From the NCBI GenBank assembly GCA_047456305.1, contig CP179888.1:116421-180420 (forward strand): 64,000 nucleotides of DNA, in the 5' to 3' direction. Both the position numbers and the translations under genes were made by a program. Within the stretch, counting starts at the first letter, position 1. The number at the start of each line of letters is the position of its first letter. Shown here one piece after another: positions 50,731 through 60,277 of this stretch. This DNA comes from Candidatus Nealsonbacteria bacterium (GTDB lineage Bacteria > Patescibacteriota > Minisyncoccia > Minisyncoccales > CAZKCU01). Below the pieces are notes generated by a model that saw only the letters and a program-made list of their open reading frames with translations, searched no databases and was not told where the DNA came from.

Positions 50731-53232
50731 TTACTTCTCTAATCTTTCTGGGGGCACTTCTTCAATTGGAGGCTGGCCTGGCTGAATCCCTTCCAAAGCT
50801 GGCTTTCCATCTCTCAAATTAGCCAAAATCTTTTTAACTTCTAAATTTTCGGGATTTAATTCTTCAATCTTTTCAAATTGGGAAATGGCATCTCTTTTAT
50901 TTCCCTCCCGGTCATAAATCAATCCCAGAAAATAACGGGCATTGGAATAATTTCTATCTAATCCTACCGCTCTTTCAAATTCTCCTTCAGCTTTCTCAAA
51001 TTGATTATCATTGTAATAAATAACACCCAATTGAAAGGCAAGACCTGTATCAAACGGTGCCACCTCCTTGATTGCCTCAAGCTTTACTGCTGCCTCCTTA
51101 GCTTTCCCCTCTCTAACATAAATCATCGCAATCTGGAAATGGGCTGGGGCATAATCATCTTTAAGTGAAAGAGACCTCTCAAAATTTTCTAAAGCTAACC
51201 TAAGGTTTTCTTCTTTCTGTCCTTCCCCTAAATCAAATTTTGAAATGTAAATTCTGCCAATTTCAGTAAAAATATAAGGATTTGTCGGCTCCAATTCCCC
51301 TGCCTTCTGATAGGAATTCAGGGCCCAATCCCCGGCACCTCCAACTATTCCCATCATATTCCGGTAGGTAAATCCTCTGACATTCCAATTAGCAACATTC
51401 TCTGGATTCAACTCGGCCGCCTGTTTTGCCGAATTTACAGCACCAGTCACAAGAATTTGGTTCTGGGAAGTCATCTCCTCTGAAGACAATCCTCTTTGTC
51501 CCAAAACTTCATTTAATCTTACTAAATAAAACTGGGAGATATCTCGCCAATAAATATCTAAGCTTGGATTTAAATTAATTGCTTCTTCTAAACGCAAAAT
51601 TGCCTGCTCTGTTTGGCCTTCTTGCCCATTTCTCAACCCCTGAAGATACCTTATCTCGGCCATATATTTTTGGGTTCCAACGAAAAAAAGTCCGATACCA
51701 AAAATTAAAACTAAAACTAAGCAAAAAGATACTCCTACTGCCAGACGAGAGCCGGGGCTAATCTCCCAAGATTTAATTTTTCTTTTATCAAGCGCTGTAA
51801 ATCCTGCCAGCAATATCCAAAAAACTAACGTTAAAGAAAAATTGGCGGGATAGAGAAATTGGCTCAAAGCCACTCCCCCAAAAGCCGAAAAAACTCCCAG
51901 CCCAAGCAAGAAAGGTATTCCATCTTTTATATCACTGGCTTTTTCTTTTAAATATCTAAAACCTAGCCAGAAAAACATTCCAAAAATAGCAAAGAGAGAA
52001 AGAATTCCCAAAATTCCGGTGGTGATTAATTTGTCAAGAATTTCTGAAGCCCCTGAGCCAAATCTGACATTCCAAAAAACTGTCTGATTTAGGTCTTTTG
52101 ATTTAAATTTTGTGAAATTATAGATAAAAGTTCCCGGTCCCGTGCCCAAAATAGGAGATTCAGATAGGCTGCTTTTGGCAATGCTGAGTTCTGCCCTCTG
52201 GCTTGGGGAAACCTCAAATGGAGTTTGGGGAAGACCGGGCAAAGAAATCCTAAAAATAACAAAAAACAAAGCAATAATTAAAAGAGCTATTGAAAGCTGA
52301 ATCCCGCCAGCCCGGCTATCCTTAATATTAAGCATCTGAAAAATAAAAAGTATTGCTGCCCCGGCAATTAAAACTAACCAGGCCGCCCAAAAATTAACCA
52401 GAACCAAGCTAACCAGCATTACTAAAGCAAAAATTGCTAACATCACTCTCATCCAGCGTTTGGCATAAAACTGTAAGATAATTGTCAAAGGAAGTAAAAT
52501 AGCTAAAAATACGGCCAGCGAATTTACTGTTCCGATGGTGTTAAAAGAGATAATTTTGGCAAAGTCCCAGGGCAGGATGAATTTACCAAAGAGTTGAAGT
52601 CCGCCAAAGATTGCTGCTAAAAAGCCTGAAATAACTAAAACAAGAAGGAGTCGAAAAACCTCTTGTTTTTTTGTAAAAACATTGGCGATTAAGAAATATA
52701 AAATTCCGAAACAAAGCAATGTTAAAAACCCGGCACTAACATTAAGCGGCCAGCCCCAAAAACTTCCATAAGGCCATAAAGAAAAAAGGGTTGAAATCCC
52801 ATAAACCACCAACAATATTACTATTGGAAGCGAAAGCCAGCTTAGATTAAATTCAAATCTGCCAGAAACCAAAATTTTCAAAATCCAGGCAAAAAGGGCA
52901 ACAAAAACTAAAATCCCCATCAAGGCCTGCTTGTTAAAATCAAGGATATTAAAAGTCCAGGGAAGAAAAAATAGAGGTAATAAAAATACCAAAAGATAAA
53001 TACTCGCTTTGGTAATTTTTCCCCAGAGTTCAACCTGCCCCGTAGGGAACCGGAGGTTCTCCTTCGGGGCTTTTTTAGGAATCTGGATTTTGGTATCTGG
53101 AGTTTCCTTGTCCTCCCAAATTTTGCCAGGCAAAATTTGGGAGGGCTTGACTTTGGCAGGAGAGCTCCGTTGCCTCTGAGATGTTTTTTTTGGAAGCCTA
53201 TTATTCGAATTAGTTTTTATCGGAATTTTCAT
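50731..53232 (-). CDS. Polytopic membrane protein with Wzy_C (O-antigen ligase/O-oligosaccharyltransferase-like) core and C-terminal TPR repeats
   Basis: About 12 TM segments in the central 400 aa. C-terminal ~300 aa of TPR-like helical repeats (YLQGLRNGQ...[13 protein letters not shown]..., [18 protein letters not shown]..). Lys/Pro-rich cytoplasmic N-terminus. Confidence 0.65.
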
Positions 53233-53263
53233 ATTTTCAATTATATATTAAAATCTTGAAAAA

Positions 53264-59200: not shown

Positions 59201-60277
59201 CTCTTTAACTGGTAGACCTTCTTCTTTTAATGCTTGAAGCTCTTTCTGGAGTTTTTCTAATTCGTCTTTTCTAACAAATTCTTCTTCTGGTTTTTCTATT
59301 ACAATTTCTTTTTTAAAGAGTTTAGTAATGGCTTGAGGAATTTTTCTTATTCCTTGAGTAAAACTTTTAAATCCATTGAGAACGGTTCTTGATGCATTGT
59401 CGAGTTTCTCTTCAATAAAGTAATTAAAAGCTAAATATCCAGATTTGAGAGTTTGCGATATCCACTGGCCAAATTCTTTGAAAGTATTGAGAGTTGATTT
59501 TAAAACATCTGGAGAACTTATGGCTGCTAATTCTTGACCAGGTTTTAATATTTTTTGAGCTATTGTTGAAAAAGTATTATCAATGGTTCCAGAGACATTG
59601 ATAAAACTATGAGGGACATCAGAAATGGTTTCAGATAAGAGTTTTGCTGTCTTCTCAACAATAACATCTCCAGCTTGGCCTATTATATATGTATAGGAAG
59701 AAAGGTCTTGCCCGAACTTTGAACTTTGAACTCTAAACTCTGAACTTAAATTAGCCATTCCCCTATCAAACCCTTGGTTGAATTCTTGGACTAAGAATGG
59801 TAATTTCTCTGAGGAAGTTTCATAAACATTTTTGAAACTCTGCACAGAATCCAAAACCAGTCTATTTCCGGCCTGGCTGATTTCTTTGACATATGGGTCT
59901 AAATTGTTAAATACACTTTTGAAACTTTCTTTGCCAAAAACTGTCCCAGCTATTAGTAGAACAAAAATCAGGGCTAAAGAAAAAGCAAATCTAATTTTGG
60001 GCACTGCTTGTTGAGATGTTATCCTGACGGAAAGTTTTTCTTCAATTGGTAAATTCTCTGGCGGAGGAGCTAGTTTTTTTGCTCTGAAATTATTATTGTA
60101 TTCTTCTATTCTTTCAATATACTCTTTAACCCATTCTTTTTTGGTTACCCAGTTTCTCCCAATTTTCACTGCTTTTAATTTTCCTTGCCTGGCCCGCAAA
60201 CTTAAATATTCCTGTGTGTAAGAACAGTATTCGGTTGCTTCCTGTAAGGATATGTAATTGTTAGATTCTCCTATCAT
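53264..60277 (-). CDS. Giant (2337 aa) membrane-anchored surface protein: N-terminal HTH_17-like segment, TM helix, coiled coil, Gly/Thr-rich fibre repeats ([10 protein letters not shown] motif, seen three times), tandem SBBP-type beta-propeller repeats, TLADSTK heptad repeats, beta-rich C-terminal domain and (GDT)n tail
   Basis: Single uninterrupted ORF. Residues ~8-55 ([46 protein letters not shown]) fit the excisionase/MerR-type HTH_17 pattern. TM at [19 protein letters not shown]. Four tandem ~104-aa repeats (one per ~312 bp; [41 protein letters not shown]) carry the beta-propeller SBBP signature. C-terminal GDTGDT... tail. Confidence 0.8.
53300..53560. repeat. 9-bp tandem microsatellite (tgtatctcc)n, ~30 units, encoding the (GDT)n C-terminal tail of the giant protein
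   Basis: Directly visible near-perfect 9-nt periodicity. ORF-track ORFs 53248..53541(-), 53256..53918(+) and 53291..53590(+) are translation artefacts of this repeat. Confidence 0.9.
55690..55805. repeat. 21-bp tandem repeat (ggctaa[c/t]gttt[t/g]gg[t/c][a/g]ctgtc) x5, encoding TLADST(K/Q) heptads in the giant protein
   Basis: Directly visible. Confidence 0.85.
55880..56780. repeat. ~312-bp tandem repeats (3 to 4 units) inside the giant gene, encoding the SBBP beta-propeller blades
   Basis: Frame-shifted minus-strand ORF-track ORFs at 55888, 56200, 56512 and 56791 recur with ~312-bp spacing, the first three with near-identical translations. Protein-level repeats ...[24 protein letters not shown]... 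recur. Confidence 0.8.

Follow-up and report, generated by a model that had tools for sequence, protein, structure and literature searches.

A recurrent neighbourhood of giant surface-fibre genes and a histidine-less, Wzy_C-like membrane/TPR protein family in Patescibacteria

Most Patescibacteria (the Candidate Phyla Radiation) have not been cultured, many are host-attached, and few of their surface fibres and envelope enzymes have been annotated. Here we analysed a 64,000-nucleotide stretch of DNA, hereafter the window, from Candidatus Nealsonbacteria bacterium (assembly GCA_047456305.1, contig CP179888.1, positions 116,421 to 180,420 of the forward strand). With about 35% G+C and the homologues that were found, the window fits an uncultured Patescibacteria genome of the Parcubacteria/Paceibacteria type. 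The minus strand of the window carries, by Pfam searches, the gene order ligA, ftsW/rodA, a giant gene, a gene for a polytopic membrane protein with a tetratricopeptide repeat (TPR) tail, rpoB and rpoC. The giant gene and the gene of what we call the membrane/TPR protein are the subject of this account. The features of the pair and of its two conserved flanks, with transmembrane helices abbreviated as TM and Tandem Repeats Finder as TRF, are as follows:

60606-61694, minus strand: ftsW/rodA (SEDS; PF01098, E = 5.9e-90), which bounds the variable fibre slot upstream and is conserved there
53264-60277, minus strand: giant gene of a putative modular surface fibre, 2337 amino acids (aa) (open reading frame and translation)
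60110-60256, minus strand: HTH_17/excisionase-like domain, residues 8-56 of the giant protein, predicted cytoplasmic (PF12728 and TIGR01764, sub-threshold)
59933-59989, minus strand: sole TM helix of the giant protein, residues 97-115 (hydropathy, mean Kyte-Doolittle 2.47)
55905-56620, minus strand: about five 52-aa repeats (TRF period 156 x 4.6, 88% matches) with faint Kelch/beta-propeller-like matches
55691-55805, minus strand: TLADSTK heptad array (TRF period 21 x 5.5; motif positions 1492-1520)
53723-53920, minus strand: Cys-pair C-terminal module, residues ~2120-2185 (alignment of fibre homologues)
53310-53680, minus strand: acidic, collagen-like array of Gly-Asp-Thr triplets at the far C-terminal end (TRF 9 bp x 41.6)
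53233-53263, minus strand: intergenic spacer between the giant gene and the membrane/TPR gene, 31 bp, AT-rich
50731-53232, minus strand: gene of the polytopic membrane/TPR protein, 833 aa (open reading frame, Pfam and AlphaFold2 model)
51622-53049, minus strand: membrane domain, residues 62-537, with 13 predicted TM helices and a distant, sub-threshold Wzy_C resemblance
52045-52251, minus strand: large TM9-TM10 loop, residues 328-396, predicted extracytoplasmic, with E340, GxGPGT 363-368, K375, K377, N382, W387, R390 and S396
50812-51612, minus strand: TPR superhelix, residues 541-807, predicted extracytoplasmic after TM13 (Pfam and PDB matches)
47291-50521, minus strand: rpoB (Pfam), the conserved downstream neighbour of the membrane/TPR gene

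The best reading of the giant protein, judged from its sequence, is that of a modular surface fibre, which is probably a trimer. Thr makes up 12.2% and Gly 13% of the whole protein, and between residues 400 and 1100 the Thr content is 15-26% per 100 residues. GNVGIGT motifs and TLADS heptads occur five times each, and exact Gly-Asp-Thr triplets 33 times; at the DNA level TRF resolved three tandem arrays, of 9 bp x 41.6, 21 bp x 5.5 and 156 bp x 4.6 copies. No signal peptide was found in the protein. Its one N-terminal TM helix, preceded by the HTH-like domain, would therefore anchor it with the N-terminus inside and the C-terminus outside. At the N-terminus, PF12728 matches with E = 5.9e-4 and 20.5 bits against a cut-off of 27, covering positions 1-49 of its 51, and TIGR01764 with E = 0.0078 and 16.6 bits against 28.8 over its full length. 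The HTH_17/excisionase-like domain and the TM helix (59933-60277) would together place a DNA-binding-type fold as the cytoplasmic head of a surface fibre. Residues 7-140 are 54% identical to the N-terminus of a beta-helix giant from a related locus (L003), and the HTH-like N-terminus is also present in two others (L027 and L028).

Pfam searches with the whole giant protein and with nine segments of it returned only the sub-threshold HTH_17 and Collagen matches and faint matches to Kelch, Lyase_8_C and coiled-coil-type models, those of the 52-aa repeats being to Kelch_6 and Kelch_4. Against PDB sequences, residues 1736-1779 of the GNVGIGT region match the Bdellovibrio fibre Bd2133 (8OND) with E = 9.7e-7. 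PHROG tail-fibre families also match the protein, these matches being driven by its Gly-X-Y tail. This tail scores 23.4 bits with Pfam Collagen, under the 27.2 cut-off, and in phmmer searches of PDB sequences it recovers collagen chains (E = 8e-34) and BclA (E = 1.7e-6). In translation it is Gly-X-Y in character, strongly acidic and broken by DDT triplets and register shifts; with this acidity and these interruptions, a collagen-like triple helix is plausible but uncertain. Ahead of the tail lies the Cys-pair module, with the consensus LGLxIENGI...MEMVDxATGEIYCTWIENGEWxKVKGEC, in which C48 and C63 of the module alignment are invariant. No Pfam family matches this module. It has 172 relatives in metagenome contigs, and every homologue of the fibre C-terminal region that bears a name is called "hypothetical protein". 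The module could act as a trimerisation knob or a recognition tag. From base to tip, the fibre would thus consist of a cytoplasmic HTH-like head, a helical stalk, Thr/Gly-rich GNVGIGT segments, the 52-aa repeats, the Cys-pair module and the acidic Gly-Asp-Thr tail. In its modular, mosaic architecture and its motif and Gly-X-Y matches it resembles Bd2133 (8OND), phage tail fibres and the collagen-like exosporium glycoprotein BclA (1WCK); unlike these, it has an N-terminal TM anchor with a predicted cytoplasmic HTH-like head, and its array is made of Gly-Asp-Thr, acidic and interrupted.

The membrane/TPR protein was modelled with AlphaFold2 from 55 homologues (pLDDT 83.6, pTM 0.79). The model predicts TM1-TM12, in which a loop of 69 residues separates TM9 from TM10, and then a TM13 that leads into the helical repeats of residues 541-807. 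This predicted 12-TM core with a long late outer loop is like that of WaaL (GT121), whose 12 TM helices come with a long periplasmic loop near the C-terminus. In the translation, Lys and Arg abound in the N-terminal tail and in alternate loops. The positive-inside rule then assigns the N-terminus to the cytoplasmic side and the big loop, with the TPR domain, to the outer side; the TPR domain is hence predicted to face outward. Its assignment is strong, with TPR_2 at E = 1.3e-15 and TPR_2, TPR_11, TPR_8, TPR_19 and others above their Pfam cut-offs, and comparisons of this region with the PDB, including Foldseek, matched CTPR, OGT and SPINDLY. An earlier reading of the letters of this DNA alone (the original prediction) had described a Thr-rich giant gene with TLADST heptads and GDT units, followed after 31 bp on the same strand by a polytopic protein with a TPR tail at 50731-53232. 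The open reading frames, the composition, the TRF arrays, the ~13 hydrophobic helices and the TPR_2 match all agree with this description, and its view of the giant protein as a surface fibre is upheld by the single N-terminal TM anchor, the Bd2133 match and the collagen-like Gly-X-Y tail.

To establish how widely the two genes occur together, we combined homologue look-ups, which gave eight loci (L001-L008), with a one-genome-per-species scan, which found relatives of the membrane/TPR protein in 406 genomes, 80 loci of which were examined. In all eight look-up loci the membrane/TPR gene is directly upstream of rpoB, followed by rpoC, ftsK and recA where the sequence extends, and rpoB lies 2.2-6.6 kb downstream of it in 43 of the 80 genome loci. 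The upstream gene varies among the eight. In the closest relative (GCA_964431915.1, L002), which shares 86% identity with the window in the membrane domain, the slot holds a 2620-aa giant with PTL_trimer, FG-GAP and FGE-sulfatase domains (giant region L002:1-6181). Directly after it comes bAvd, the gene for the accessory protein of diversity-generating retroelements, although the 10-kb flank of this locus showed no reverse transcriptase. The slot of another relative holds a 1642-aa beta-helix protein with DUF2341 and cadherin/PKD proteins, preceded by ligA-ftsW, and those of others hold LamG giants of 1482, 1786+ and 2241 aa. In three loci (L005, L007 and L011) the upstream giants share the C-terminal region of the window fibre at 30-44% identity.

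In 28 of the 64 genome loci that offer 800 bp or more of upstream sequence, the Cys-pair module precedes the membrane/TPR gene on the same strand. In the reverse direction, 80 metagenome loci were retrieved by the module alone, and among the 60 with at least 2.5 kb of downstream sequence the membrane/TPR gene follows within 6 kb on the same strand in 21; for a genome of ~1 Mb carrying one or two copies, we estimate the chance expectation at below 1%. Of the 33 loci whose upstream sequence spans 5 kb or more, 12 have an open reading frame of at least 1000 aa within 10 kb on that side. In 16 of the 80 genome loci the contig stops within 600 bp of the membrane/TPR gene on its upstream side, and many metagenome contigs start inside the fibre gene just ahead of the Cys-pair module. 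Such breaks suggest fibre genes so repetitive, or so variable between strains, that assemblies fall apart in them, and the adjacency has probably been under-counted owing to them. In at least six loci (L013, L020, L043, L049, L083 and L087) ftsW is directly upstream and there is no fibre gene. The membrane/TPR gene itself has a tandem paralogue in three of the eight look-up loci, where the second copy, ~30% identical to the first, lies between the first and rpoB (L004:3736-5979, L006:12298-14538 and L008:6513-8633); the same is seen in L012, L053, L054, L071 and L079, and the window has a single copy.

Since both proteins have many homologues, chance or artefactual reading frames were rejected. 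The recurrence in both directions far exceeds chance, and the neighbourhood is therefore real and old, while being neither universal nor exclusive. Conservation of the pair across related genomes, which had been proposed as a check, is thus borne out in that the pair recurs with strand and order unchanged in divergent Patescibacteria, and not in that the fibre is variable or absent in some loci. The best-supported interpretation is that the fibre gene is a mosaic occupant of a variable slot between ftsW and the conserved membrane/TPR gene, and that the repeated co-location with module-sharing fibres reflects a functional tie.

The family of the membrane/TPR protein, encountered in this analysis in Patescibacteria only, is large, with 1578 cluster representatives (50% clustering) at E ≤ 1e-30 and 13670 at E ≤ 1e-3. 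Its only public name is "tetratricopeptide repeat protein", and in the literature searched we found no paper on it and nothing specific to it in Patescibacteria. The sole Pfam family that recurs across its orthologues and paralogues is Wzy_C (PF04932), for which the matches shown span nearly the whole profile at an equivalent position. In the window protein the match covers residues 283-413, over TM8 to TM10, with 16.8-17.4 bits and E = 0.006; it recurs in 6 of 23 orthologue membrane domains (best E = 6.9e-5) and in three of eight paralogues (22.2-24.4 bits), none reaching the gathering score of 31.7 bits. "Wzy_C-like" is accordingly a lead rather than a classification. Searches of the membrane domains with NCBIfam gave scattered weak matches only (TcpD, IctB and ABZJ_00895), and Pfam gave no match to PglL_A (PF15864) in the 23 membrane domains at E ≤ 10 and no significant match of the membrane/TPR protein to polymerase families.

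Ligases and O-oligosaccharyltransferases (O-OTases) share a signature of two Arg and one His, R215, R288 and H338 of Escherichia coli WaaL being equivalent to R224, R298 and H349 of PglL (PMC3643930), and the corresponding residues of CmWaaL are R191, R265 and H313 (PMC10920833). In our WaaL alignment, R215, R288 and H338 are all invariant. The original prediction had named the loop residues of ligases and O-OTases beforehand as one of the points on which it could be refuted. Histidine is missing from residues 60-540 of the window protein and stays below 20% in every column of the 55-sequence alignment, and the family offers neither a counterpart of PglL H349 nor a significant alignment to WaaL or PglL from which R224 and R298 could be assigned. 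The only conserved Arg of the big loop is R390, and positions K/R375 and K/R377 are basic. Across two paralogue groups of ~30% identity the fixed or conservatively substituted residues are D/E98, K101, S151, S157, G160, N231, E340, GxGPGT 363-368, K/R375, K/R377, N382, W387, R390, S396, D/E400, G406, G409, Y461 and N464, all of them in predicted outer loops or helix ends of the model. Protein glycosyltransferases that join a GT-C domain to TPRs (TfpW-like, TMTC/PMT-like) have an acidic DDX/DxD-type motif in the first outer loop and an outward TPR domain. In the membrane/TPR protein, D/E98 and K101 (LDFNKQ) belong to the first outer loop, and the TPR domain is predicted outside; GT-C_A enzymes gave no sequence or fold match to the membrane/TPR protein (AftA, Foldseek E = 0.77). 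Within the CAZy clan GT-C1, which unites SEDS proteins, ligases and inverting polymerases, Asp or Glu replaces the ligase His in the polymerases and SEDS proteins, along with one or two Arg (PMC10920833). The residue pattern of the membrane/TPR family fits this polymerase/SEDS variant better than the ligase pattern.

Several known systems offer partial parallels. WaaL (GT121, PF04932, 7TPG) shares with the membrane/TPR protein the 12-TM core, the long TM9-TM10 outer loop and the conserved residues at the outer face, as predicted for the latter (PMC10920833). Unlike WaaL, the membrane/TPR protein lacks the catalytic His, has one conserved loop Arg, stays below the Pfam threshold, shows no profile or Foldseek similarity and carries an additional TM13 and an extracytoplasmic TPR domain. 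The cells differ too, as to our knowledge Patescibacteria have neither an outer membrane nor lipopolysaccharide. O-OTase genes often lie by those of their substrates, 21 of 31 pglL homologues being beside pilin genes, and PglL/PilO resemble our case in this co-oriented adjacency to a plausible surface substrate with Ser/Thr low-complexity sequence (PMC3643930); unlike them, the membrane/TPR protein has no H349 counterpart and no PF15864 match, and its neighbour is a 2337-aa fibre rather than a pilin. A C-terminal TPR motif has been reported for WsfB and PglL (PMC2943079). WsfB of Paenibacillus alvei, a predicted S-layer O-OTase, and WsaA/WsaB of Geobacillus come close in combining a polytopic Wzy_C-type domain with TPRs in a cell without an outer membrane and with a proposed surface-protein target (PMC2943079), whereas WsfB matches Wzy_C properly and sits in an S-layer glycan locus with sugar-synthesis genes. 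TfpW of Pseudomonas aeruginosa is a GT-C enzyme with a periplasmic TPR domain that is encoded directly downstream of pilA and modifies its protein substrate on several Ser/Thr (bioRxiv 10.1101/2020.04.19.049825). It is like the membrane/TPR protein in its N-in polytopic topology, its outward C-terminal TPR and its gene position directly downstream of that of a surface protein, and differs in its 11 TM, DDX motif, ArnT/Emb-like fold and polyprenyl-phosphate monosaccharide donor, with no sequence relation seen. Finally, the Wzy-type polymerases and SEDS proteins of GT-C1 share the late-outer-loop carboxylate with one or two basic residues in place of the ligase His, and are not described there with TPR fusions (PMC10920833); the gene that ancestrally precedes the membrane/TPR gene, ftsW, itself encodes a SEDS protein. 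Thus, the architecture and gene logic (a polytopic transferase-like domain, TPRs and a surface-protein neighbour) were already known, and the catalytic signature and the family were not.

Our best reading is that the membrane/TPR protein is a Patescibacteria-specific, His-less Wzy_C-like/TPR transferase of the outer face that is tied to surface fibres, and not a dedicated PglL-type enzyme. The gene order, the recurrence of the neighbourhood, the predicted topology and the residue conservation are shown by the data; catalysis, donor and acceptor we infer as follows. The protein would act at the outer face as a GT-C/Wzy_C-like transferase with a lipid-linked donor, the carboxylates E340 and/or D/E400 would take the place of the WaaL/PglL histidine, and K101, K/R375, K/R377 and R390 would hold the phosphate(s) of the donor, while the TPR domain would hold the exported acceptor. 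The best candidate acceptors are the neighbouring fibres with the shared C-terminal module; they are probably not the sole ones, since the enzyme is kept by rpoB even where no fibre gene adjoins. That fibres receive a lipid-linked group transferred at the outer face by the membrane/TPR protein is a serious possibility which we would place somewhat short of even. The more specific proposal of a hitherto undescribed enzyme-substrate module that would be widespread among Patescibacteria, in which a His-less Wzy_C-like 13-TM/TPR transferase recognises the Cys-pair module or the Thr-rich/collagen-like segments of mosaic host-attachment fibres and glycosylates them or otherwise attaches a lipid-derived group at the cell surface, we regard as unlikely.

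A number of results weigh against the transferase reading. None of the Wzy_C scores (16.8-24.4 bits) reaches the family threshold of 31.7, and the family profile had no match among PDB sequences at E ≤ 10. The hhalign comparisons with E. coli WaaL alone and with a 26-sequence WaaL profile were null (probability 0.5%), this profile being enterobacterial and narrow, so that a distant Wzy_C relation is still compatible with the result. As Foldseek with the full-length model returned TPR proteins only, the membrane domain was modelled alone, and this model found nothing significant in the PDB (best E = 0.02, TM-score < 0.2). Conservation of polar residues is moreover no proof of catalysis. In the annotated parts of the window no glycan-assembly genes were seen beside the pair, which has ligA, ftsW, rpoB and rpoC next to it, and neither a flippase nor an initiating phosphoglycosyltransferase came to light. 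Lastly, the fibre gene is missing from the slot in several relatives, and the adjacency could stem from a recombination hot spot.

One alternative is that the membrane/TPR protein is a housekeeping wall-polymer enzyme, a Wzy/SEDS-like polymerase or ligase with no specific relation to fibres, and that the slot next to ftsW is merely a hot spot for variable surface genes. The fixed position upstream of rpoB-rpoC-ftsK-recA, kept by rpoB in 43 of 80 loci, speaks for it, as do the six loci in which ftsW adjoins directly without a fibre, the size of the family (1578 representatives at E ≤ 1e-30; 406 species genomes), the frequent tandem duplication, the replacement of His by a carboxylate as in polymerases and SEDS proteins (PMC10920833) and the heterogeneous slot content of beta-helix, LamG, FG-GAP and cadherin/PKD proteins. 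A passive hot spot is nevertheless hard to reconcile with the reciprocal enrichment, in which 35% of the fibre-module genes keep the same strand and order beside membrane proteins that are only 38-57% identical, and TPRs go with protein glycosylation in WsfB and TfpW, the related membrane enzymes that we met in the literature (PMC2943079; bioRxiv 10.1101/2020.04.19.049825); on balance we hold the housekeeping explanation to be somewhat unlikely. It is improbable that the protein is a non-enzymatic assembly or anchoring factor, whose TPR docks the fibre C-terminal module or chaperones trimerisation or export with the polytopic domain as a platform. TPR domains are classical protein-protein scaffolds, the Cys-pair module recurs beside the membrane/TPR gene, and no curated family's catalytic signature is present, all of which would suit such a factor; yet the ~25 polar, Gly or Pro positions of the outer loops kept between ~30%-identical paralogues exceed what a passive platform needs, and the protein is kept where no fibre gene adjoins.

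The specific claim of the original prediction was that of a bona fide PglL/PilO/WaaL-type O-OTase or ligase, dedicated to the giant protein and supplied by a nearby GT4 cluster. A weak Wzy_C match, an adjoining Thr-rich low-complexity protein, the existence of GT4 genes and the frequent location of PglL homologues beside their substrates (PMC3643930) all favour it. The family-wide absence of the catalytic His, set against the invariant H338 of WaaL, largely refutes it, and the single conserved Arg (R390) of the big loop, the lack of a PF15864 match and the lack of profile or fold similarity to WaaL point the same way. The "Wzy_C-family" label that it used is weak at 16.8 bits against 31.7, all orthologue and paralogue matches being sub-threshold as well. 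The protein is also not dedicated, as the fibre is variable or absent; indeed, a dedicated partnership was rejected because ftsW directly abuts the membrane/TPR gene in several relatives. Four GT4/Glycos_transf_1 genes do exist at 13999-19331. They are flanked by dnaG and rpoD and lie ~35 kb from the pair, with groEL, uvrA, a PGA_cap gene, uvrC, RNase J, a class I tRNA synthetase, phosphoglucomutase and a YchF-type GTPase among the annotated reading frames in between; their sole tie to the pair is the shared 64-kb window, and we rejected them as glycan supplier on account of these flanks, this distance and the intervening housekeeping genes. Altogether, this explanation is very improbable, and the specific claim is largely not borne out; what stands is a solid conserved association, beyond which the mechanism of the membrane/TPR protein is inferred.

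These observations single out a family with a core position by rpoB whose gene is statistically tied to hypervariable giant fibre genes. If the membrane/TPR protein is an enzyme that acts on those fibres, it would represent a new catalytic variant of the Wzy_C/GT-C enzymes with a carboxylate for the ligase His, and a testable entry into the surface biology of Patescibacteria, through which one could approach how these ultrasmall episymbionts decorate the fibres by which they adhere. Should it prove to be a housekeeping wall-polymer enzyme, the family would still point to a conserved function of the envelope that lacks annotation. In neither case should the specific annotation as PglL/WaaL be perpetuated.

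Regarding the expression of the pair, the 31-bp spacer contains no terminator-like hairpin on the coding strand and is overlapped by a promoter-like hexamer pair, and co-transcription of the fibre and membrane/TPR genes across it appears possible from the sequence. The region 54001-58000 of the giant gene has a G+C content of 44-46%, against ~35% in the rest of the window, which may reflect its Gly/Ala/Thr codon content or a foreign origin. Elsewhere in the window, the reading frames at 41406-43595 and 40369-41385 are probably ftsK and recA, judged by their position and the synteny of the relatives. Further envelope-related genes occur on the plus strand at 27727-33727, namely those of the PGA_cap (CapA-like) protein, a small Kre9/KNH-like Ig-domain protein, a 4-TM holin-family protein and a family-5 solute-binding protein with an inserted peptidoglycan-binding domain. 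The 5' coding part of the membrane/TPR gene contains a palindrome at 53110-53146, with a perfect 15-bp stem and a 3-nt loop, which was not seen in the closest relative, L002. It encodes residues ~30-42 of the protein's variable N-terminal tail, and RNA folding of 65 nt around it gives -25.1 kcal/mol.

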